This document shows, one piece after another, positions 1 to 9,641 of a stretch of 64,000 nucleotides of DNA (positions within the stretch are counted from its first letter, which is position 1; the number at the start of each line of letters is the position of its first letter). Made by a program: the position numbers and the translations under genes. This DNA is from an uncultured Bacteroidota bacterium (GTDB lineage: Bacteria > Bacteroidota > Ignavibacteria > UBA10030 > UBA6906), in the NCBI GenBank assembly GCA_963779225.1, contig CAVZWW010000001.1, positions 542,921 through 606,920 on the forward strand. The letters run 5' to 3'. A model generated the notes under the pieces. That model saw only the letters and a list, made by a program, of their open reading frames with translations, did not search any database and was not told where the DNA came from.

Positions 1-7
1 AGGAACG

Positions 8-1210
8 ATGCGGTTGCATGACGAGGTTGTACCTGCAAGAACGATAACACCGGTTCTCCGGACGACTGCGCTTGTCCGGGCCGGTAAAATGCGTGTAAAA
101 AAGATACCGCTGGAACTCAGGCGCAAACAACCCGATTTCGCAGGCGAGCGCCGCCGGTTCAAACGCATTGTGTGGCGTCTCAAAGAGGATTCGCAATTCC
201 AGAGAACGGTCGTCCAGGCTGCGTTTGTGCTCCTGTGTATCTGGATCGGGATCGAATTCTTCCTCTTTATGCGCTGGGGGATGTCCGGGGGCCAGGAGAC
301 GTTCTTCCCCCGCCCACCCGGCGTAGAGGGCTTCCTGCCCATCAGTGCGTTGATCAGCGTGAAGTACTGGTTCCATACGGGAATACTCAACAGCATCCAC
401 CCCTCCGGTTTCGTCATCCTCCTCGGGATTGTTGTGGTGAGCGTGGTTCTGAAGAAAGCCTTCTGCAGCTGGCTCTGTCCCGTGGGGACGCTCAGTGAGT
501 CCCTCTGGATGCTGGGCCAACGACTTTTCAAGGGTACGCTTACACTTCCCCGCTGGCTGGACTATCCTCTCCGGTCCCTGAAGTATCTGCTGCTGGTCTT
601 CTTTGTCTGGTCCATCTGGAACATGGACGTCGATGCCCTCCGGGAATTCATCTACAGCCCGTATAACAAGATGGCCGACGTGAAGATGTACCTGTTCTTT
701 GTGCACATTTCCACTTTTGCCCTCGGCACGATCCTCGTCCTTGTCCTTCTGTCAGTGGTGATAAAGAATTTCTGGTGCAGATTTCTCTGCCCGTACGGGG
801 CTTTGCTGGGGATCACGGGCTGGCTGAGCCCGCTCAAGATCACGCGCAACACACAGACGTGTGTGGACTGTGAGTTGTGCACGAAGGCCTGTCCCGCGTC
901 CATCAAGGTCCATAAAGCAAAGCGTGTCTGGAGTGATGAATGCAGCAGTTGTATGGCGTGCGTTGCGGTGTGCCCGGTGAAGGCCACACTTGATGTGCGC
1001 ATCAGCACGCGTGGACCGGCCGTGCCCACGTGGGTGTACGGGACGCTCGTGGCGGGGCTCTTTGTCGCCGTCACGGGTCTGGCGATGCTGAGCGGGTTCT
1101 GGCAGAACGGCATTACCCGTGAAGAATATCAACGGCGATTCCAGACCCTGGATGCACCGGTGTATCAACACTTCCGCGGACAGGTGCCGCAGTATGGTCC
1201 CAATGACTGA
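8..1210 (+). CDS. Membrane-bound 4Fe-4S polyferredoxin (NapH/MauN/RnfB-like)
   Basis: 400-aa ORF with hydrophobic TM stretches interleaved with Cys motifs CSWLCPVGT, CRFLCPYGA, CVDCELCTKACP, CSSCMACVAVCP (two CxxCxxCxxxCP ferredoxin clusters). Start may be upstream of the window or at an internal Met (about 86). Paralogous to the 46719-48296 gene. Confidence 0.6.
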   Translation: MRLHDEVVPARTITPVLRTTALVRAGKMRVKKIPLELRRKQPDFAGERRRFKRIVWRLKEDSQFQRTVVQAAFVLLCIWIGIEFFLFMRWGMSGGQETFFPRPPGVEGFLPISALISVKYWFHTGILNSIHPSGFVILLGIVVVSVVLKKAFCSWLCPVGTLSESLWMLGQRLFKGTLTLPRWLDYPLRSLKYLLLVFFVWSIWNMDVDALREFIYSPYNKMADVKMYLFFVHISTFALGTILVLVLLSVVIKNFWCRFLCPYGALLGITGWLSPLKITRNTQTCVDCELCTKACPASIKVHKAKRVWSDECSSCMACVAVCPVKATLDVRISTRGPAVPTWVYGTLVAGLFVAVTGLAMLSGFWQNGITREEYQRRFQTLDAPVYQHFRGQVPQYGPND

Positions 1211-1964
1211 TACACGGACGGCCGTGGCCGGCTTCTACGACCGGTTGTCTCCTGACTATGATGCAATGACCGGTTTTGAGCAACGGTTCGAGCGGGAACG
1301 GCCGTTCTTCAAGGGGCTGGTGGAGCAGTGGCATATCCGGTCGGCGATTGACGCGGGAACCGGGACGGGGTTCCATGCGCTTCTCCTGGCCCAGCTCGGC
1401 GTGGATGTGACCGCCGTGGATCTTTCTCCGAACATGATTTCCTCTCTCGCAGGGCATGCAAAGGAAATGGGTATTACCCTCCGCACACATGTGGCAGGCT
1501 TTTCCGACCTTCCCCGGTTGATCGAACAACCCGTCGATGCGGTAGTGTCGCTCGGCAATACTCTTGCGCACATTCTAACGCCGGAAGAACTGCATGAAGC
1601 GATGGTTTCCTTCGCCGCGGTGTTGAAGCCCGAAGGCATCCTGTTCGCCCAATTGCTGAACTACCGCAGGATCCTTGCTTCGCGCGAGACTCTGGTGAAC
1701 GTTAAAGAAGTGAACGGCAAACGGTACAGCCGCAGGTATGAATATCCCGCAGGACGTATCAGATTCACGATTACCCGGGAGGATCTCACGGGTCAGTCGG
1801 CAACCGTGTCCGAGAGTGTGGATTTGAATCCGATTATGGATGACGAGCTCGTTGCCGTCCTGCGTGCAGCCGGGTTCGCGCAGATCGGGTTATATGGTGG
1901 TGTGAACATGGACCCCTACATTCCAGAGACCTCAAAGGATCTGGTGATCCTTGCCGGCAGGTGA
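1203..1964 (+). CDS. Class I SAM-dependent methyltransferase
   Basis: Motif I IDAGTGTGFHALLLAQLG followed by the acidic loop VDLSPNM. Chosen start ATG 1203 overlaps the upstream stop (ATGACTGA), implying translational coupling; the ORF track begins at 1119. Confidence 0.6.
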   Translation: MTDTRTAVAGFYDRLSPDYDAMTGFEQRFERERPFFKGLVEQWHIRSAIDAGTGTGFHALLLAQLGVDVTAVDLSPNMISSLAGHAKEMGITLRTHVAGFSDLPRLIEQPVDAVVSLGNTLAHILTPEELHEAMVSFAAVLKPEGILFAQLLNYRRILASRETLVNVKEVNGKRYSRRYEYPAGRIRFTITREDLTGQSATVSESVDLNPIMDDELVAVLRAAGFAQIGLYGGVNMDPYIPETSKDLVILAGR

Positions 1965-2116
1965 TCCACGGGGAGTCAGGAACACCGGAGGAACGCGGGC
2001 TGCCTTCCCTGCGTTCGAAAAGAGGGAAGATCATCAAGGAGCCGGGGTTCGTAGCCATGCTCATCGACATTGAAGGGAACAGGTTTGCGCGCCATTCCAT
2101 GGCATAAGGCGGATCA

Positions 2117-2536
2117 ATGAGCCCGGGGTATGAGATTCTCGAGCACCCGGCGGACGTCGGCATCGAGGCGCGGGGACCGTCCCTGGCGGATGCTTTTGCG
2201 CAAGCGGCAGAAGGGCTGATGTCCGTCATACTTGATCCCACCCATGTGGTTCTGCGGGAATCGCGAAGGATAACGCTCACTGCCTCCGACACAGACCAAT
2301 TGCTCGTACGCTGGCTCTCCGAGATACTGTATCTGTTCGATGGGTGTGGGTTCGCGGGCTCCCGGTTTGATATCGAGATCCCTTCTCCTGCATCGCTCAT
2401 CGCGACCGTGCACGGAGAGATATTCTCCCCGTTGCGCCACACCGTGCGCACGGATGTGAAGGCGGTGACATATCATCTGCTCCATATACAGCAAAGCCCG
2501 GATGAGTGTGTGGTGAGGGTCTATTTGGACATCTAG
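2117..2536 (+). CDS. Archease (RtcB activator/chaperone)
   Basis: 139 aa; the N-terminus YEILEHPADVGIEARGPSLADAFAQAAEGLMSVILD matches the archease family signature (…EHTADIGI…). It lies directly upstream of rtcB. Confidence 0.75.
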   Translation: MSPGYEILEHPADVGIEARGPSLADAFAQAAEGLMSVILDPTHVVLRESRRITLTASDTDQLLVRWLSEILYLFDGCGFAGSRFDIEIPSPASLIATVHGEIFSPLRHTVRTDVKAVTYHLLHIQQSPDECVVRVYLDI

Positions 2537-2586
2537 AGACCGTCGTGCCACCGTCAGCGCACCGACCCCGAAAAGCAAAACCCCAC

Positions 2587-2782
2587 CGAAACGAACATCC
2601 TTGGGATCAACACCTTCAGGACGAGTGTCCCGGGACGAATGCCTTAGGGGGGAACGCCGCTGAAATGACATGTCCGGGGCGAAGACCTCGAGGCAACCAC
2701 TCCGGGAGGAACACCCTCGGGACAAACGGTCCCGAGCCACACCCCCTCCGGACGAACGCCTTCGGTGCGAACACTCCCGAGG
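2587..2782. repeat. About 13 tandem degenerate copies of a 14-15-nt unit (consensus roughly cGAACayCCyyGGGa) in the archease-rtcB spacer
   Basis: Read directly: gaacatccttggga / caacaccttcagga / cgagtgtcccggga / cgaatgccttagggg / tgacatgtccgggg / cgaagacctcgagg / caaccactccgggag / gaacaccctcggga / caaacggtcccgag / gacgaacgccttcggtg / cgaacactcccgagg. Many units hold short palindromes (CCCGGG, CCTCGAGG, CTCCGGGAG) and GGA/GGGA motifs. The ORFs the track places here (2506-2799+, 2616-2822-) show the same periodicity at amino-acid level and are repeat artefacts. Confidence 0.5.
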
Positions 2783-2864
2783 CAGAGACTTGCGAGTGAT
2801 CTTCTGCCCGGCTATCTTGCACTAATGCACAGAAGAACTGTTTCTGTCAGATGAGAGGATCCCC

Positions 2865-4298
2865 ATGTCCGGCTCATTCCGTTCCGTAGACCCATACCGC
2901 CACATCCTCCCGATGACATACAAGTCGGGGATGCGAATTGAGGGTATGGTCTATGCGGATGCCGAGCTGTTGAGACAAATTGAATCGGACCTGACCTGCG
3001 AGCAAATAGCCAACGTTGCCACACTTCCCGGCATGGTCGGCCGCTCGCTGGCAATGCCGGATGCGCACCAGGGGTACGGGTTTTGCATCGGGGGAGTCGC
3101 GGCCGCCGATCTTCAGGACGGCGTAGTGTCCGCCGGGGGTGTGGGCTTTGATATTAACTGCGGTGTCCGCCTTCTTGCTGCTGATGCCGATCCTGGCGAC
3201 GTGCGAGGTAGACTGGAAGAGCTGCTGTCCAGGCTGTTCCGCGACATCCCCTGCGGCACGGGGAAAAAGGGAGTTCTGGACCTCGGAATCAGAGAGTTGG
3301 ACGGGGTACTGCGTGAGGGTGCCCGATGGGCGGTGTCCCGGACGTACGGGCGCGAAGAGGATCTGACACGTATTGAGGAATCCGGATGCTTGCCCGGCGC
3401 AGATCCCGATCTTGTCAGCGCCCGGGCAAAAGAGCGGGGACACACCCAACTGGGAACCCTGGGTTCGGGGAATCACTTCATTGAAATCCAGTATGTGGCG
3501 GAGATCTATGACGGTCCCGTTGCAGCCGCCTTCGGTATCCGCCGGGACCAGATTGTCGTGTTGATACATAGCGGATCGCGGGGGCTTGGCCACCAGGTCT
3601 GCACGGACTATCTGGATCTTATGCACGACGGAATGAAGCGTTACCGGATCTCGGTGCCGGACCGTCAGCTTGCATGCGTGCCCGTGGGATCGAAGGAAGG
3701 GCGACAGTATCTGGCGGCCATGGCGGGAGCGGCCAATTTCGCCTTCGCAAACCGTCAGATGATGACACACTGGATCCGGGAGGTGTTCCGGAAGGTGATT
3801 GGCGATGCCGGTCTCCGGGTGGTCTACGACGTCTGTCACAATATCGCGAAACAGGAGAGCCACCTGGTGGACAAATCCCGCAGATCCGTTCTTGTCCACC
3901 GGAAAGGGGCGACCCGTGCGTTTCCGAAAGGGCATATGGCGCTGCCCCCTGACCTCCGGGAGGTCGGCCAACCGGTGCTGATTCCGGGAAGCATGGGTAC
4001 CGCCTCATACATTCTGGTTGGAACCGAGAGAGCCATGGAGGAAACATTTGGCTCGGCATGCCATGGTGCCGGACGCGCAAAAAGCCGTACCCGTGCAAAA
4101 GCCGGGACGTCGGCGGAAGCGCTCTTCCACGACATGGCACGCCGTGGTGTTCTGGTCCGGGGCCAGAGCAAAGCGGGCCTCACGGAAGAACAACCCGATG
4201 CCTACAAAGACGTTCACCGTGTGGTTGATGTTGTGCATTCGGCGGGCATCGCGCGCAAAGTGGCAAAGCTTGTCCCCCTCGCAGTGATGAAAGGCTGA
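2865..4298 (+). CDS. rtcB: RNA-splicing ligase RtcB (3'-phosphate/5'-OH RNA ligase)
   Basis: 477 aa; RtcB hallmarks GSGNHFIEIQ, HSGSRGLGHQ, CHNIA, LIPGSMGTASYILVG, ACHGAGR (metal-binding His/Cys and the GMP-histidine region). RBS gagagga 8 nt upstream of ATG. Confidence 0.9.
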   Translation: MSGSFRSVDPYRHILPMTYKSGMRIEGMVYADAELLRQIESDLTCEQIANVATLPGMVGRSLAMPDAHQGYGFCIGGVAAADLQDGVVSAGGVGFDINCGVRLLAADADPGDVRGRLEELLSRLFRDIPCGTGKKGVLDLGIRELDGVLREGARWAVSRTYGREEDLTRIEESGCLPGADPDLVSARAKERGHTQLGTLGSGNHFIEIQYVAEIYDGPVAAAFGIRRDQIVVLIHSGSRGLGHQVCTDYLDLMHDGMKRYRISVPDRQLACVPVGSKEGRQYLAAMAGAANFAFANRQMMTHWIREVFRKVIGDAGLRVVYDVCHNIAKQESHLVDKSRRSVLVHRKGATRAFPKGHMALPPDLREVGQPVLIPGSMGTASYILVGTERAMEETFGSACHGAGRAKSRTRAKAGTSAEALFHDMARRGVLVRGQSKAGLTEEQPDAYKDVHRVVDVVHSAGIARKVAKLVPLAVMKG

Positions 4299-4301
4299 TA
4301 T

Positions 4302-4739
4302 ATGAAAGACACCGACCCGAGGATGCACTCGGCCGAACACATCCTCTCGGCAACACTTGTCGCAATGTTCGGTATGGGACGGCCGTTCACCACCCATCTG
4401 GAGAAGAAGAAATCGAAGGCCGACTACCATTTCGGCAGAACGCTGACACCGGGAGAAGCAGGAGAAGTGGAACGCTGCGTCAATGAAGTGATCGACAGGG
4501 ATCTTCCGGTCTCTGAAGAATTCCTGCCGGCTGAAGTCGCGTCTTCGATGTTTGACCTGTCCCGCCTGCCCGGGGAATCGGCCGCCAGCGTGCGGATCGT
4601 GAGAATCGGAACATATGACGCCTGTCCATGTGCGGGAGCACATGTCCGCTCGACGCGGGAGATAGGCCGGTTCCGGCTGATCTCCTGGTCGCATGAGGAA
4701 GGTGCACTGCGGCTCCGGTTCAAACTCGACCAGGGCTGA
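4302..4739 (+). CDS. AlaX-S-like tRNA editing domain protein (threonyl/alanyl-tRNA synthetase second additional domain)
   Basis: 145 aa, starts 3 nt after the rtcB stop. Carries the two Zn-binding motifs of the tRNA_SAD/AlaX editing fold: HSAEHIL (HxxxH) and CPCAGAHV (CxxxH). Confidence 0.55.
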   Translation: MKDTDPRMHSAEHILSATLVAMFGMGRPFTTHLEKKKSKADYHFGRTLTPGEAGEVERCVNEVIDRDLPVSEEFLPAEVASSMFDLSRLPGESAASVRIVRIGTYDACPCAGAHVRSTREIGRFRLISWSHEEGALRLRFKLDQG

Positions 4740-4814
4740 GATGCACTTCCAAAAAAGTCTTCGTATATTGTCCGGTGACAATCGCGCCTGTTTCACTACC
4801 TGCACCGAAAACCA

Positions 4815-5633
4815 GTGAATAGGAAATTTCTGGGATTGCTGACCGCACTGCTCAGCGGCGGAATACTATGCGCTCCCGTAGTACTTTCGCTTCATGCCCT
4901 CGACAGCGTCGAACCCACGCCCGGTTCGATCGTTCTGGCCGATGAAGAGGAATTGACATATGAAGTCACCTGGTCGTTCGTCACGCTGGGTATCGTTCGC
5001 GTGAAAGCGAAACCGGACCTTACCGTTCAGGCATGGATTGACTCCTACGAGGGTCTGCCCTACGTGGATTTGCACTCCATCTACTACTCCAGGATGGATT
5101 CGTCCCTGTATTCGTCCAGTTCCTGGTCTCTGGACAAACAGGAAGACGGAGAGTGGACCGGACTAAACTATATCTATGATCCGCCCAGCAGGCGTCTCGC
5201 CATTGAGGAGGTTCGTCAGAAGGACCCCCACAGCGCGCCGCATCTTCGCAAAATGCGGGATACGCTTGTGTTGACCGAGCCATCGTTTCTGGATGGGATC
5301 TCCATCGCGTTCTTTCCACGAACGCTGGTTCACACCGCCCGGTCTGTCGGCGTGCCAACGGTCCTTCGTGAAAAGCTTGGCATCACGACGTTCTACCTTC
5401 CGGGAGAACGCACAACGGTGGACCTGGATGCCGTGGACTATCCCGTGCGCGCGATTGAGATGGAGGGTACCACAACGGTGGTGGGCGTATTCGGAATGAC
5501 CGGGGATTTCAAAGGATGGTTCAGTGACGACGCATATGCAGTTCCGCTGAAAGGCAAGCTGAAAGTGCTGCTCGGATCGGTCACCATGGAACTTGTGAAG
5601 TGGAAGCGTGGATCGTGGAACCCGCCTCAATGA
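4815..5633 (+). CDS. Hypothetical secreted protein (possibly DUF3108-like)
   Basis: GTG start; N-terminal signal peptide LGLLTALLSGGILCAPVVLSLHA; no catalytic motifs recognised. Confidence 0.35.
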   Translation: MNRKFLGLLTALLSGGILCAPVVLSLHALDSVEPTPGSIVLADEEELTYEVTWSFVTLGIVRVKAKPDLTVQAWIDSYEGLPYVDLHSIYYSRMDSSLYSSSSWSLDKQEDGEWTGLNYIYDPPSRRLAIEEVRQKDPHSAPHLRKMRDTLVLTEPSFLDGISIAFFPRTLVHTARSVGVPTVLREKLGITTFYLPGERTTVDLDAVDYPVRAIEMEGTTTVVGVFGMTGDFKGWFSDDAYAVPLKGKLKVLLGSVTMELVKWKRGSWNPPQ

Positions 5634-5725
5634 CGAAGAAACGGAGTCATGCGCGCGTCAGTGGTGGTCCAGGGGCACCTCACAGTACGATGACGGCGCC
5701 CGGGGCCATCGTAGCCGGCGAAGGG

Positions 5726-7087
5726 ATGAGCGAAAAGAAGCGTATCGCCCTGACTTCGGTCTTTGCTGCAATCTTCATCACGGGGCTCAAACTGGTGGTC
5801 GGCCTGGAGACGAACAGTCTGGGGTTACTCTCCGAGGCGGCACATTCGGGCCTGGATTTTCTGGCCGCGCTCATGACGTATGTTGCGGTTCGGGTCGCCG
5901 ACCGCCCCCCCGACCGGGAACATCAGTACGGGCACGGAAAAATTGAAAACCTCTCGGCTTTCCTTGAGACGCTCCTCCTGTTCATCACCTGCGCCTGGAT
6001 TATCTGGGAGGCGGTCCATCGTCTGGTGACGAAAAGCGCACACGTCGAATCCAGCATCTGGAGTTTTGTCGTCATCGCCATTGCTATCGTTGTGGACATC
6101 AGCCGTTCCCGGGCGCTGTCCCGCGTTGCCAAGAAGTACCGGAGTCAGGCTCTGGAAGCGGATGCCCTGCACTTTTCCAGCGATGTCTGGAGTTCACTCG
6201 TCGTACTGATGGGATTGGTCTGTGTGGCGTTCGGGTATGACTGGGTAGATGCTGTGGCGGCGATCGGAGTGGCTCTTCTGGTCCTCTTTGTGAGTTATCG
6301 CCTTGGACGCCGGACGATCGACGCGTTGATGGACAGGGTTCCCGAGGGGTTGTACGAACAGGTGCTCGAGGCTGTCCGTGGAGTGGACGGCGTTGCGGAG
6401 GTGCGCAGCATCCGCCTCAGGCCGTCAGGGGCCAAGGTGTTCGTGGATACCACCATTGCCATCCGGCGGACCACGCCCTTCCAGCTCGCACATACGATCA
6501 TGGATGACGTGGAACAGGCTATTCACGTTCACTATCGCGACATGGATGTGGTGGTCCATGCCGAACCGTATGAGAGCGACGATGAGACGATTGCCGACAA
6601 GATCCGCATGATCGTCATCGGCAGAGGGCTGCCTCCACCCCACAACCTGGAGGTGCATAATGCGGACGGCCGGTATCACGTGGAGTTTGATGTCGAGTAC
6701 GTGGAGGGGAAGAGCCTTGTCGAGGCGCATGACGTCGCCGACGAAATCGAGCGTGACATCCGCGCCGGACTTGCCTCTGTGGACAACGTGACCATCCACA
6801 TGGAAGAGAGCGGTTCCGATGAAAATCGGGTCAATGCCTCCGCGGGTGACGAGAACCTCCGGTCCGACATCACGGCCTTTGTCCGGAAAGATAAGCGGAT
6901 TGTGGATTGCACGAGTGTCCGGCTCTTCCATATCGGTGACCGGTACAATCTTTCCATCAACTGCTCGTTTGACCGTTCACTCACTCTTGAGGAAGTGCAT
7001 CGTGTTATTTCCCAGCTGGAGACGAAGTTGTACGACCATTTTGCGCATCTCCGGCGGGTGACCATTCACGCCGAGCCCTCGTCGTAG
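5726..7087 (+). CDS. Cation diffusion facilitator (CDF) metal efflux transporter with three tandem C-terminal cytoplasmic domains
   Basis: TM1-TM2 region LTSVFAAIFITGLKLVVGLETNSLGLLSEAAHSGLDFLAALMTYVAVRVADRPPDREHQYGHGKIENLSAF carries the CDF signature. It is followed by three CTD-like repeats, each ending …V(V/T)IH(A/M)EP (HVHYRDMDVVVHAEP; VDNVTIHMEESG; LRRVTIHAEP). Start chosen at MSEKKR (5726); the track ORF begins at 5600. Confidence 0.7.
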   Translation: MSEKKRIALTSVFAAIFITGLKLVVGLETNSLGLLSEAAHSGLDFLAALMTYVAVRVADRPPDREHQYGHGKIENLSAFLETLLLFITCAWIIWEAVHRLVTKSAHVESSIWSFVVIAIAIVVDISRSRALSRVAKKYRSQALEADALHFSSDVWSSLVVLMGLVCVAFGYDWVDAVAAIGVALLVLFVSYRLGRRTIDALMDRVPEGLYEQVLEAVRGVDGVAEVRSIRLRPSGAKVFVDTTIAIRRTTPFQLAHTIMDDVEQAIHVHYRDMDVVVHAEPYESDDETIADKIRMIVIGRGLPPPHNLEVHNADGRYHVEFDVEYVEGKSLVEAHDVADEIERDIRAGLASVDNVTIHMEESGSDENRVNASAGDENLRSDITAFVRKDKRIVDCTSVRLFHIGDRYNLSINCSFDRSLTLEEVHRVISQLETKLYDHFAHLRRVTIHAEPSS

Positions 7088-7194
7088 CCGCTAAGGAGAC
7101 AGTGCCACACCACCCGTGCGGCACCAAAATCCCACCTGAGACTCTGAAACTCCCGTTTACCCCCTTTTCCCCCTCTCTTGTGCGTAACAGATAC

Positions 7195-7209
7195 TGGCAC
7201 ACTGCTTGA
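7195..7209 (+). promoter_or_regulatory. Possible sigma54 (-24/-12) promoter-like element upstream of the cytochrome cluster
   Basis: TGGCAC-actgc-TTGAa against consensus TGGCAC-N5-TTGCA (-12 is GA not GC), 225 nt upstream of the 7435 ATG. A sigma54 activator is encoded elsewhere in the window. Confidence 0.2.
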
Positions 7210-7434
7210 ATGTCTGATGGCATCCAATCAGGATGGCTCATCTCCATCAGAGGTGCAGTCGTGCAGAAACTGTCTCTCCAGGATATCCGTATCCGGCCAA
7301 ACACACCGAGCGGGGAACGAAAAGACCTCCAGCATCGGTTTACATAATAGGGTTAAGCGGCACCCTGACGGCCGGACTTGATTTGATTTCCACGGACTCT
7401 CCACAATACGCCTCATCATCAGCTGGATACTCCG

Positions 7435-7836
7435 ATGACCACCAAGACTCAGATCTCCCTTCTGTTGTCTCTTGCTCTTCTTGCCGGGTGCAAGGATGCA
7501 GGCACCGAGCCGCAATCAGACCCGGTGACTCCACCGCCACCGGGTGCGACGGTTTCGTTTTCCCAGCAGGTGCTGCCCATCCTGACGGCAAAGGGGTGCA
7601 CCGGATGCCATGGTGGTAGCGGTGGGCTGGTTGTCGGCACGGTGGCCGATCTTCTTGCCGGCGGCAACCATGGACCTGCGGTGGTAGCGGGGGACGGGGC
7701 CGGCAGCAACCTGGTGAAGAAACTGATTGCTCCTCCCCCCTTTGGCGAGCGCATGCCTCTGGGCGGTTCGCAATTGCCCGACAGCACAATCACGGTCATA
7801 CGGACATGGATCAATCAGGGGGCGAATAACAACTGA
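7435..7836 (+). CDS. Monoheme c-type cytochrome lipoprotein, PSCyt1 (Planctomycete cytochrome c)-like domain
   Basis: Lipobox LLAGC; single CTGCH heme site followed by the family spacing …GGNHGPAVVAG…LIAPPPFGERMPLGG…VIRTWINQGA. Confidence 0.55.
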   Translation: MTTKTQISLLLSLALLAGCKDAGTEPQSDPVTPPPPGATVSFSQQVLPILTAKGCTGCHGGSGGLVVGTVADLLAGGNHGPAVVAGDGAGSNLVKKLIAPPPFGERMPLGGSQLPDSTITVIRTWINQGANNN

Positions 7837-7986
7837 CCGCTCGTTGTGGAGTTTATCGAGCCGGGAAGGTGAGGGGTAGCCGCAAGGAGTGAAGCGGGAG
7901 TCTCTGCGGGCAGATGAACGGCGTGGTCGTCGTTTGATCTTCCATCAGGATATGCGTATCATCCGGAAAGCCGAGGAAGGTGTAAA

Positions 7987-8457
7987 ATGGGGAAGATTCT
8001 CAAGGTTGGAGGCATAGGCCTCGCCATTTTGCTGATTGCGATACAGTTCTTCAGGCCGGAGCGTTCGAATCCGGCCGTAGATCCCGCAGGTGATATCGCC
8101 GCCCAGATGTCGGTTCCTCCCGCGGTCCGGTCGATACTCGAGCGGTCCTGCTACGATTGTCATTCAACCAAGACGCGATGGCCGTGGTACACCAATGTCG
8201 CTCCGGTTTCATGGCTTGTTGTTCATGATGTGGACGAAGGGCGGGAACACCTCAATTTGTCGGAATGGGGCTCCTACAAACAGGGAAAACGCATATCGCG
8301 GCTGGACATGATGATCAGTGAAGTGGACAAAGGCGAGATGCCTCCGACAACCTACCTTCTCCTGCACGGAGAGGCCGCGCTGACCGAGGCCGACAAGGAT
8401 ATTCTCTGTGCCTGGGCGGAGCAGCTCAGCGACAGTCTTACCGCCGCCGGCAAGTGA
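7987..8457 (+). CDS. Membrane-anchored heme-binding-domain protein (CxxCH; Haem_bd-type)
   Basis: N-terminal TM helix ILKVGGIGLAILLIAIQFF; CYDCHSTKTRWPWYTNVAPVSWLV heme motif; later MPP motif. RBS gaggaagg upstream. Confidence 0.5.
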   Translation: MGKILKVGGIGLAILLIAIQFFRPERSNPAVDPAGDIAAQMSVPPAVRSILERSCYDCHSTKTRWPWYTNVAPVSWLVVHDVDEGREHLNLSEWGSYKQGKRISRLDMMISEVDKGEMPPTTYLLLHGEAALTEADKDILCAWAEQLSDSLTAAGK

Positions 8458-8528
8458 GCCTGACGGTTCAGGGAATAGATCTCCCTGACCGGCCAGCGAG
8501 TGACAATACCAATCACGAGGACAGACGG

Positions 8529-9641
8529 ATGCGAACGAGACAACGTGGCGTGTTCCTGGTGGGAGTGTTGCTCCTTGCCGGCACGTGTGCCTGGTCGCTG
8601 CCCCGCTTCGCGGCACAAACCGGGACCAAATGCCAGTCGTGCCATATCAATCCCTCCGGAGGTTCGATGCGCCAGGCTTTCGGCGCACAATACGGTCGCG
8701 AAGAACTTCCCGTACCGGAGTGGTCGCAGGATTTCGAGGTGGAGGATTTTACCACGCTCCTGACAAACTTTCTCGGCGTCGGAGCGGATTTTCGGACGCT
8801 GTATTATGTGCGTGAGATTCCCGACTCTACTGGAGAGAGCTCACGATCGGAGGACACATTCTGGCAAATGCAGGGAGATCTGTATCTCAATTTCCGTGTC
8901 GCAAAGAAGGTCAATCTCTTCCTCAGGAAGGGTCTGTACAGCGGTTTCGAAGCATTTGGTCTCCTCAATATTCTGCCGGCGAACGGGCATGTGAAAATAG
9001 GCAAGTTTGTTCCCAACTACGGCCTCAAGCTGGATGACCACACGGCGTTTATACGCAAGTATACAGGATTCAGCGCGGAGAGCGGGCGTCCGGAACTGAC
9101 GGGACTCGAAATGGGAGTCTCTCCCGGTCCGGCCAGCATTACCGGGGGGGTGTTCAATGCTGAGGACGGGTTTGGCGGAGGCTCCAGCCAGAAAGCGTTT
9201 CTGGGGCGAGCGGAGGGGATCTTCGCTCTCGGCCAGAAGGTGTTTCTCGGCGCCGGAGCGGACATCTTTCATAAAGGAAATGACGACGGCTCAACGCAGA
9301 CCCTTTACGGGGGTTTTGCGTCGTTCGGTGCCGGACAGTTCACGCTCCTTGGCGAAGGGGACTACATCAATGAGAAGCAATCCGGAGTGACCAGCACCGG
9401 TCTGGTGATTTTCGCCGAGGCGTCATATACGGTAACACCCGGGGTGGATCTGAAGGCGTCGTACGACTTCTATGATCCGGATACGGACTACAAAACCGGC
9501 TCTTCCACGCGATACAGCTTCGGATTCGAGTTTTTCCCCATTGCCGGAGTTGAAATACGACCGATGTACCGCATCCTCGTGGAAGAACCGACCAATGCAA
9601 AGAACAATGAATTTCACTTTCTGTTCCACATCTACCTGTGA
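8529..9641 (+). CDS. Cyc2-like fused monoheme cytochrome-porin (outer-membrane beta-barrel with N-terminal CxxCH)
   Basis: Signal peptide MRTRQRGVFLVGVLLLAGTCAWSLPRFAAQ, then CQSCH within about 10 aa of the mature N-terminus, then roughly 330 aa of alternating-hydrophobic beta-strand-like sequence ending YSFGFEFFPIAGVEIRPMYRIL…FHFLFHIYL. RBS gagga. The track ORF starts at 8454 and overlaps the upstream gene. Confidence 0.45.
   Translation: MRTRQRGVFLVGVLLLAGTCAWSLPRFAAQTGTKCQSCHINPSGGSMRQAFGAQYGREELPVPEWSQDFEVEDFTTLLTNFLGVGADFRTLYYVREIPDSTGESSRSEDTFWQMQGDLYLNFRVAKKVNLFLRKGLYSGFEAFGLLNILPANGHVKIGKFVPNYGLKLDDHTAFIRKYTGFSAESGRPELTGLEMGVSPGPASITGGVFNAEDGFGGGSSQKAFLGRAEGIFALGQKVFLGAGADIFHKGNDDGSTQTLYGGFASFGAGQFTLLGEGDYINEKQSGVTSTGLVIFAEASYTVTPGVDLKASYDFYDPDTDYKTGSSTRYSFGFEFFPIAGVEIRPMYRILVEEPTNAKNNEFHFLFHIYL

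Follow-up and report, generated by a model that had tools for sequence, protein, structure and literature searches.

Does an operon that runs from archease through the RNA ligase RtcB to a free-standing tRNA editing domain of the AlaX-S type encode one unit of tRNA repair and proofreading, or does it preserve a gene order inherited within a lineage? The question is raised by a locus in a 64-kb stretch of DNA from an uncultured Bacteroidota bacterium (the window, meaning the whole stretch analysed), for which the preliminary description had read three genes in this order; we found open reading frames for all three in the places it had assigned to them (Table 1). The parts are known genes, and their arrangement is a lineage-specific operon of one Ignavibacteriota clade.

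Table 1. Features of the archease-rtcB-alaX-S locus, with positions counted from the first letter of the window.
Feature	Position	Strand	Description	Basis
archease gene	2117-2536	+	139 aa, RtcB activator	PF01951
degenerate repeat tract	2585-2789	+	~13 units x ~15 nt, consensus roughly GAACRCCYTCGGGRC	autocorrelation
promoter-like element TTG-N20-TATCTTG	2790-2819	+	directly upstream of rtcB	inferred, conserved block
rtcB 5' leader	2829-2859	+	inverted repeat ACAGAA/TTCTGT at 2829-2834 and 2842-2847; ribosome-binding site GAGGA at 2855-2859	sequence read
rtcB	2865-4298	+	477 aa, archaeal/eukaryal-type 3'-phosphate/5'-OH RNA ligase	PF01139
rtcB-alaX junction ATG AAA GGC TGA tat ATG	4287-4304	+		sequence read
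alaX-S	4302-4739	+	145 aa, free-standing tRNA editing domain; inferred Ser-tRNA(Ala) deacylase	PF07973

The first two genes form the established 'tRNA splicing operon', a pair known from a wide range of bacteria and archaea (Desai et al. 2014, PMC3973293). The archease product matches PF01951 over the whole profile (1-136 of 136; E 5e-38, 130.9 bits) and solved archeases over its full length (4n2p, E 3e-15; 1jw3, E 7e-15), with its N-terminal EHPADVG and C-terminal KAVTYH pairing with the equivalent segments of both. RtcB likewise spans all of PF01139 (1-426 of 426; E 1e-170, 569 bits against a cut-off of 27) and aligns over residues 6-477 with P. horikoshii PH1602 (phmmer, 1uc2/4dwq; E 3e-165). 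In this alignment D95, C98, N202, H203, H234, H329 and H404 (P. horikoshii numbering) are all identical, among them every metal ligand (D95, C98, H203, H234, H329) and the guanylylated residue (H404); the segments concerned read DINCG, GSGNHF, HSGSRGLGH, CHNI and CHGAGR. The ligase is of the archease-dependent archaeal type and not of the E. coli type, whose NCBIfam model PRK09588 it matches with only 176 bits against a cut-off of 407; it is full-length, and GTP/Mn-dependent joining of 3'-phosphate to 5'-OH ends is predicted for it.

The locus resembles the published tRNA splicing operon (PMC3973293) in that archease is followed directly, on its own strand, by an archaeal-type rtcB and both proteins are full-length with catalytic and metal-binding residues kept. 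The same position of archease was seen in every rtcB-bearing relative whose contig extends that far. Two features set it apart from that operon: throughout the clade a third gene, alaX-S, sits at the 3' end after a gap of 2-3 nt, and in the window's sub-lineage archease and rtcB are separated by 92-328 nt carrying a promoter-like block. Like the E. coli rtcBA/RtcR and the Salmonella and Deinococcus rtcB-Ro-Y RNA operons, the locus places an RtcB ligase amid RNA-related operon genes; unlike in those operons, RtcA, RtcR and Ro domains were found in none of the adjacent genes examined, and no sigma-54 promoter was seen by eye.

The identification of the third product withstood the profile search that the preliminary description had proposed. 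The 145-aa protein matches PF07973 (tRNA_SAD) above the Pfam cut-off (E 6e-11), and its zinc motifs, H9-x3-H13 and C110-A-G112-A-H114, show no variation among 18 homologs and align with those of P. horikoshii AlaX-S (1v4p), in agreement with the HXXXH and CXGXH definition of the AlaX zinc-binding motifs (PMC12003907). NCBIfam models of AlaXM and the alaS editing region also match, below their equivalog cut-offs, and the AlaXM match is confined to model positions 96-230 of 234 (71 bits against a cut-off of 300). The alignment of the protein with P. horikoshii AlaX-S (1v4p/1wnu; residues 4-150 of the 157 aa of 1v4p) covers its full length, as fits the minimal AlaX-S form, an editing core lacking both the N-terminal beta-barrel of AlaX-M and the C-Ala domain of AlaX-L. 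An AlphaFold (AF2) model (pLDDT 90.7, pTM 0.86) returned 1v7o, 1v4p and 1wnu as the top Foldseek matches in the PDB (TM 0.85 by query, 0.81 by target, E 1e-12). By its HxxxH/CxGxH motifs and predicted fold, at TM 0.85, the protein is of the AlaX-S type, and it presumably acts as a Ser-tRNA(Ala) deacylase.

It thus shares minimal size (145 against 157 aa), zinc motifs and fold with P. horikoshii AlaX-S (1v4p, 1v7o, 1wnu, 1wxo), from which it differs in an identity of only ~26% and in an invariant basic segment, RPFTTHLEKKKSKADY, that belongs to the bacterial AlaX-S subfamily. The threonine that discriminates serine is reportedly Thr30 in the P. horikoshii protein; the window's protein carries an invariant T30-T31, although in the pairwise alignment W29-T30 of the P. 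horikoshii protein fall into an insertion, so that the threonines are at most tentatively equivalent. AlaX-S enzymes are reported to be relaxed in tRNA specificity. In P. horikoshii the rtcB tag, PH1602, lies far from PH0574, which we take to be the AlaX-S locus tag, suggesting that the two genes are apparently not adjacent there.

The rtcB stop codon ends at 4298 and the alaX ATG begins at 4302, which bears out the 3-nt gap first described. Of the 16 junctions examined, those of the window and L005 have a gap of 3 nt and those of 14 other relatives a gap of 2 nt, and both ATGAARGGNTRR-NN-ATG and AAAGG are kept in 16 of 16. The final rtcB codons would appear to supply the AAAGG ribosome-binding site of alaX, and the earlier expectation of co-translation stands to the extent that co-transcription and translational coupling are probable. 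Strict retention of the junction extends to ~20 independent contigs in which the proteins have diverged considerably (RtcB 68-93%, archease 44-89%, AlaX 63-92% identity), and conservation over such divergence would normally count as weak guilt-by-association evidence for a functional link.

How far the adjacency reaches was assessed in 80 GTDB species representatives carrying the AlaX-S subfamily (54-87% identity) and in 50 metagenome contigs; both surveys consist almost entirely of AlaX-S sequences at least 48% identical to the query, with distant lineages such as archaea lying outside them. RtcB was scored by tblastn, with L005 added to the positives from a reading of its junction, and the loci counted as RtcB-negative reached 1.5 kb or further upstream. 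Among the representatives, rtcB lay directly upstream of alaX in 9/80, 62 had no RtcB there and 9 could not be assessed (9/71 of those assessable). The metagenome contigs gave 11 with the adjacency, 17 without and 22 not assessable (11/28 assessable, all positives in one clade). All nine positive representatives are among the closest relatives of the window and belong to its Ignavibacteriota clade, with AlaX identities of at least 63%. No adjacency was found among the surveyed delta-proteobacterial/Desulfobacterales-type, Spirochaetes, Elusimicrobia or Verrucomicrobia loci, nor among the more distant Ignavibacteriota loci, the surveyed MAGs bearing Ignavibacteriota/Bacteroidota labels and those of the other four groups. 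Recurrence in other genomes, on which the preliminary description had made its proposal depend, was thus essentially not found, the adjacency being confined to a single Ignavibacteriota clade.

This distribution suggests that the adjacency arose once and has been passed on by common descent within the clade. Elsewhere AlaX-S has unrelated housekeeping genes as neighbours, with products such as a nitroreductase, aldo-keto reductase, peptidases, PBP or histidine kinase, and RNA-related genes are not among them. Within the clade the region is same-strand and generally syntenic (Rrf2 - Fer4_5 protein - SAM methyltransferase - archease - rtcB - alaX-S - DUF3108 - CDF metal transporter), and flanking genes with no functional relation to the three (Fer4_5, methyltransferase, CDF) keep their order to the same extent as rtcB-alaX.

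Gene losses in the relatives separate the two functions further. In L001, whose AlaX is 85% identical, rtcB is reduced to ~25 codons of its 3' end, and L009 retains an N-terminal archease remnant and a C-terminal rtcB remnant; alaX is intact in both, and in both the rtcB tail with its AAAGG ribosome-binding site persists as a scar. L004 and L007 show the order methyltransferase-alaX-CDF with rtcB missing. Conversely, archease-rtcB occurs with no alaX downstream in L091-L095, a sample of three RtcB proteins on five contigs (P0226, P0218 and P0202; 69-70% identical) in which archease was upstream in all cases and a UvrD/PDDEXK helicase or PAS-GAF kinase gene was downstream. Joint gain, loss and retention of rtcB and alaX is thus not borne out by L001, L009, L004 and L091-L095. 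Archease-rtcB is ancestral in the clade, given the deletion scars in relatives; these scars, together with a homogeneous GC content (0.54-0.63 over 1-9000), exclude a recent horizontal transfer of the pair.

These observations bear directly on the proposal of the preliminary description that RtcB, archease and AlaX-S form a dedicated module, in which cleaved tRNA would be rejoined by RtcB and its aminoacylation then checked by AlaX-S. Translational coupling and a junction kept clade-wide speak for such a module, and a link is biochemically conceivable since both proteins act on tRNA (PMC3973293; PMC11260482). We found no paper treating RtcB and AlaX together in the literature searched, which excluded the RNA-repair-neighbourhood survey of Burroughs & Aravind 2016, so that within that literature the idea is neither described nor refuted. 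Against it stand the one evolutionary origin, the missing adjacency in 62 of 71 assessable representatives of the subfamily, the RtcB orthologs with no alaX beside them and the survival of alaX after archease-rtcB deletion in at least two lineages; moreover, the adjacent genes were seen to include no anticodon nuclease, toxin or tRNA gene, and tRNA genes are absent from all 64 kb of the window. We consequently consider the module very unlikely, and the proposal as first made does not hold up. The same must be said of a real partnership restricted to this clade, in which AlaX-S would deacylate mis-acylated or damaged tRNAs for RtcB-archease repair, or proofread them after religation, with the rtcB losses as secondary simplifications; this, too, appears decidedly improbable.

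The spacer between archease and rtcB (2537-2864, 328 nt) had been described as unusually long, repeat-filled and structured, and the first two of these properties were confirmed. Spacers among the relatives range from -8 to 328 nt, most of them from -8 to 59 nt. Autocorrelation against first-order Markov simulations revealed a periodicity of ~15 nt (z = 5.0 at lag 15, 4.5 at lag 29), and four repeat families (D1-D4) were identified; Tandem Repeats Finder reported no repeats in the spacer, because the units are too degenerate. Within the window the motif clusters solely in the tract at 2585-2789. The conserved part of the spacer is limited to its last ~80 nt, comprising a promoter-like TTG-N20-TAnnTTG and a ribosome-binding site; this block is common to the window, L005, L085, L086, L088, L096 and L097, with variable sequence further upstream, and the 48-nt spacers of L003, L008 and L011 carry an analogous TTG-N20-TAGCTTG. 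A scan for the sigma-70 consensus left the block unflagged (8/12 positions by our own count, against a threshold of 9); it resembles what we take to be the Bacteroidota-type -33/-7 promoter. TTG-N20-TATCTTG is thereby a putative promoter of rtcB.

Structure, the third property, was not apparent, as the spacer folds with no excess stability over its shuffles (MFE z-score -0.49). The idea, raised earlier by analogy with the Salmonella and Deinococcus rtcB operons, that the spacer holds a structured non-coding RNA, Y-RNA-like or other, working with RtcB is encouraged by its unusual length and by small palindromes inside the repeats, and weakened by the following results. Rfam returned no family in 2537-2864 at E<=1 and none at gathering score in the whole window, with no Y-RNA or YrlA match in either search. 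The repeat tract is missing in L005 and L096 (spacer 92 nt; RtcB 90% identical), ~100 nt shorter in L085, L086 and L088, of another repeat flavour in L097 and unrelated in L119. RNAalifold on the 92-nt conserved block gave -5.5 kcal/mol, the covariation term being +0.92, and no convincing covariation (six input sequences; the range of L085 was mis-set, which left the result unaffected). An RNA gene in the spacer is on these grounds extremely unlikely. The sole Rfam match in 1-8000 is a chance-level snoRNA inside rtcB (E 0.26).

Two other readings of the repeats deserve mention. The tract could be an array of regulator binding sites or an upstream promoter element serving the rtcB-alaX promoter, given that it lies directly upstream of the conserved TTG-N20-TAnnTTG block, is regularly phased at 15 nt and is confined to the sub-lineage with the 92-nt promoter block. 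We nevertheless regard this as unlikely: copy number and sequence vary strongly among close relatives, zero copies are tolerated in L005 and L096, and no candidate regulator gene is adjacent, the Rrf2 gene lying several genes upstream in relatives and being kept also in L004, which has no rtcB. Alternatively, the period of 15 nt equals five codons, and an ORF at 2506-2799 would encode 97 aa with a 5-residue periodicity (GTNALGGNAAE...RTNAFGANTPE); L086 (62 aa) and L088 (63 aa) likewise have an ORF in this frame, with ...ETCE or ...ETCV at its end. The start of the window's ORF, however, falls within the archease gene, GC-rich sequence poor in stops is expected to contain open frames, and by our own reading the translated repeat departs from the canonical pentapeptide-repeat consensus A(D/N)LXX. 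A small repeat protein is barely credible here, and as the main reading of the spacer it is ruled out, since the ORF cannot exist in the 92-nt spacers of L005 and L096.

Taken together, the locus is probably an archease-RtcB pair followed by a housekeeping AlaX-S gene, linked by descent as an arrangement of expression and not as a functional unit, with a spacer that represents repeat expansion and not an RNA gene. Judging from family membership, archease would accelerate the guanylylation of RtcB His404, RtcB would join RNA 3'-phosphate or 2',3'-cyclic-phosphate ends to 5'-OH ends, and AlaX-S, acting independently, would remove serine mis-attached to tRNA(Ala). Transcription of alaX-S would most likely start from the promoter-like element in the archease-rtcB spacer, and its translation would probably be coupled to that of rtcB, whose AAAGG would serve as its ribosome-binding site; as alaX-S in this clade lacks the space for a separate promoter, and with rtcB-coupled translation, its linkage is best read as an expression arrangement. 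The rtcB-alaX linkage would thus have been fixed once, by descent, and the long spacer would result from rapidly evolving, degenerate 15-nt repeats that expanded upstream of the promoter-like block.

A functional link between RtcB and AlaX-S, if true, would join the repair of RNA breaks to the quality control of aminoacylation and would constitute a new idea on how cells recover from tRNA damage; the practical value of the locus is modest, because the comparative evidence favours a lineage-specific operon of two independent housekeeping or accessory functions. The rtcB deletions provide a clean example of a gene being removed while its last codons, which also serve the following gene as ribosome-binding site, are spared, and the surveys document a bacterial AlaX-S subfamily with many members (52-92% identity in nearly all loci surveyed), present in MAGs assigned to several phyla and marked by the invariant RPFTTHLEKKKSKADY.

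The archease, RtcB and AlaX-like reading frames of the preliminary description were recovered in full, and all three protein assignments hold. The archease is homologous end to end with solved archeases (4n2p, 1jw3), and residues 6-477 of RtcB align with P. horikoshii RtcB (PH1602; E 3e-165), keeping all of the metal ligands D95, C98, H203, H234 and H329 as well as the guanylylated H404. The third product, proposed earlier to be an AlaX-S-type tRNA_SAD protein, aligns end to end with the AlaX-S structures 1v4p/1wnu, matches AlaXM and AlaRS models over their editing-core part only, and carries H9-x3-H13 and C110-A-G112-A-H114, invariant in 18 homologs; HXXXH/CXGXH motifs define the AlaRS-editing family (PMC12003907). 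Its AlphaFold model (pLDDT 90.7) has P. horikoshii AlaX-S as best PDB match (TM 0.85).

Features of the archease-rtcB-alaX region (window coordinates)
Feature	Coordinates	Strand	Basis
Archease	2117-2536	+	PF01951, E 5e-38, whole profile matched
97-aa ORF	2506-2799	+	spans the spacer repeat tract
TTG-N20-TATCTTG element	2790-2819	+	conserved among relatives
RtcB, 477 aa	2865-4298	+	PF01139, E 1e-170
AlaX-S, 145 aa	4302-4739	+	above tRNA_SAD threshold

Conservation across this bacterial AlaX-S subfamily is striking: nearly every locus surveyed is 52-92% identical to the query, and the subfamily spans MAGs titled Ignavibacteriota, Deltaproteobacteria/Desulfobacterales, Spirochaetes, Elusimicrobia and Verrucomicrobia, together with a human-gut contig. 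To our knowledge none of its members has been characterised. Its invariant basic segment RPFTTHLEKKKSKADY, which archaeal AlaX-S lack (alignment A1), may be a tRNA-binding patch.

As judged from their families, archease would activate RtcB guanylylation, RtcB would join RNA ends bearing 3'-P or 2',3'>P to 5'-OH ends, and AlaX-S would hydrolyse Ser-tRNA(Ala) and perhaps Ser-tRNA(Thr), in line with what is reported for P. horikoshii AlaX-S (PMC11260482). The alaX ATG, at 4302, follows an rtcB stop codon that ends at 4298, and in 16/16 junctions examined the sequence reads ATGAARGGN-stop-NN(N)-ATG, leaving 2 or 3 nt between the genes and making it very likely, as the preliminary description had supposed for translation, that the two genes are co-transcribed and translationally coupled within the clade, the Ignavibacteriota group in which rtcB adjoins alaX. 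If gene anatomy is a guide, production of AlaX-S would depend on the rtcB promoter and on translational coupling to rtcB.

The expectation that the RtcB-AlaX association would recur in other genomes was not borne out. We scanned GTDB, at one genome per species, for the AlaX-S subfamily and kept the best 80 loci (54-87% identity to the query; MAGs titled Ignavibacteriota/Bacteroidota, delta-proteobacterial/Desulfobacterales-type, Spirochaetes, Elusimicrobia and Verrucomicrobia), counting adjacency by tblastn with the window's proteins and scoring RtcB as absent only with at least 1.5 kb of upstream sequence. Among these 80, rtcB abuts alaX in 9, 62 have no RtcB and 9 cannot be assessed; the corresponding counts for 50 metagenome contigs are 11, 17 and 22. 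All nine positive genomes (L005, L006, L008, L010, L011, L012, L013, L014 and L016, of which L010 is truncated by its contig edge, L013 carries frameshifts and L005 was entered by hand after the junction comparison) belong to the query's closest relatives and have AlaX at least 63% identical to it; the 11 positive contigs likewise all have AlaX at least 64% identical. Within these surveys, which comprise almost only AlaX sequences at least 48% identical to the query, the adjacency is restricted to one lineage. Outside the clade, alaX-S neighbours nitroreductase, aldo-keto reductase, M49/M64/S46 peptidase, class A PBP, PAS histidine kinase and permease genes, with no RNA-related gene among the neighbours identified.

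Even within the clade, alaX and archease-rtcB are retained independently of each other. Three relatives without archease-rtcB retain methyltransferase-alaX-CDF synteny, two of them with deletion scars beside an intact alaX. In L001 (7920-8003; AlaX 85% identical) the scar holds some 25 degenerate codons from the 3' end of rtcB and finishes in an exact ...PLAVMKG-stop 2 bases upstream of the alaX ATG, while in L009 (5820-6013) an archease N-terminal remnant, GVRFLDHPADIGV, precedes what is left of the rtcB C-terminus, IVCKVAPLVPRAVMKG. The ancestor of the clade therefore had archease-rtcB, and at least two deletions have since removed the pair but left alaX intact. The spared rtcB tail (..VMKG) in both loci includes AAAGG, the alaX ribosome-binding site, which is probably why it survived. 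Conversely, a small reverse look-up of three RtcB proteins that share 69-70% identity with the window's RtcB, no less than many RtcBs of the clade do, found archease directly upstream on 5/5 contigs, a UvrD/PDDEXK helicase or PAS-GAF kinase downstream, and alaX downstream on none of the five. The stable unit is archease-rtcB, an operon already published (PMC3973293), and AlaX-S is one of several downstream neighbours.

The closest public relatives, MAGs labelled Ignavibacteriota or, in older entries, "Bacteroidetes bacterium", share a long same-strand block: Rrf2, Fer4_5 protein, SAM methyltransferase, an AMP-binding enzyme in some, archease, rtcB, alaX-S, sometimes DUF3108, and a CDF cation-efflux protein. 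The functionally unrelated Fer4_5, methyltransferase and CDF genes keep their order as faithfully as RtcB-AlaX does, so the synteny is not specific to that pair. GC content is even across the region, and the 64-kb window contains no tRNA genes or Rfam-family RNAs. An adjacency that arose once and was then inherited is only weakly indicative of a functional link, and we regard a genuine repair-plus-proofreading partnership, as the preliminary description proposed, as very improbable. We hold with good confidence that RtcB and AlaX-S function independently and that their linkage is a matter of expression, an arrangement that became fixed a single time in the clade. Our literature search found neither a paper treating RtcB and AlaX together nor this gene order.

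Several further features of the block were observed. The upstream trio of Rrf2 regulator, membrane Fer4_5/4Fe-4S protein and class I SAM methyltransferase is conserved (window 8-1964; L003:1181-3657; L004:5319-7790; L085:3348-5886); the methyltransferase ORF overlaps the Fer4_5 gene end, and its best NCBIfam match, far under cut-off, is glycine/sarcosine N-methyltransferase. A CDF cation-efflux/ZT_dimer transporter lies 3' of alaX-S throughout the clade, sometimes beyond a DUF3108 gene (window 4302-7087; L003, L004, L008, L009, L011, L014), even where rtcB is deleted; its position beside a zinc enzyme may be coincidental synteny or a zinc-handling link. In the long-read MAG L013 (CAVOYH010000001.1, 6584-10195) rtcB and the CDF gene are each broken into several frames, most likely through homopolymer/indel assembly error and not pseudogenisation, with a similar problem at the 5' end of alaX in L005. 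Archease and rtcB overlap in some relatives (spacer -1 or -8 nt; L013, L016), and the 622-aa database protein P0174, containing both domains, may be either a true fusion or the product of a frameshift or assembly error.

The archease-rtcB spacer is indeed unusually long and repeat-filled, but the structure suggested for it gains no support: the folding of its 328 nt does not surpass that of shuffled controls (z = -0.49). Within it, degenerate units of 15 nt, each resembling GAACRCCYTCGGGRC, recur about 13 times (autocorrelation z = 5.0 at lag 15, 4.5 at lag 29), and this motif clusters nowhere else in the window. The tract has not been stable in evolution. Most relatives have -8 to 59 nt between archease and rtcB, against 92 nt in L005/L096, where the tract is absent, about 190 nt with different short repeats in L097, 223-226 nt in L085/L086/L088 and about 275 nt of unrelated sequence in L119. 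With neither an Rfam nor a Y-RNA match in the spacer, the conjectured Y-RNA-like gene finds no support. The 97-aa ORF across the tract shows 5-residue periodicity (..GTNALGGNAAE..GRNTLGTNGPE..RTNAFGANTPE..) and the same frame is open in both L086 and L088. L005/L096, which lack the tract, cannot contain this ORF, and it is therefore probably non-coding. The repeats might serve a regulatory function, an idea that gained no support.

What is conserved is the last ~80 nt before rtcB, where the TTG-N20-TATCTTG element, resembling what we take to be the Bacteroidota-type -33/-7 promoter consensus, is followed by a short inverted repeat and a GAGGA ribosome-binding site; an analogous TTG-N20-TAGCTTG occurs in the 48-nt spacers of L003/L008/L011. 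We read this block as a putative rtcB-alaX promoter with a fast-evolving repeat expansion upstream. In L097 (RtcB 91% identical) the spacer (2365-2575) carries an exact tandem duplication of the 14-nt CTGAAAATCGAGTC, and the region upstream of the block seems prone to slippage-type expansions.

The locus falls within the established archease-RtcB operon class, to which an AlaX-S gene, likewise of a known kind, has been joined. Unlike E. coli-type rtcBA/RtcR loci, it has no RtcA or RtcR domains in the adjacent genes examined, and unlike Ro/Y-RNA systems no Ro domain there and no Y-RNA match. The evidence makes the archease-rtcB-alaX order a lineage-specific variant of little mechanistic consequence. 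L001 and L009 offer a neat case in which the tail of a deleted gene is kept and would drive translation of the next.
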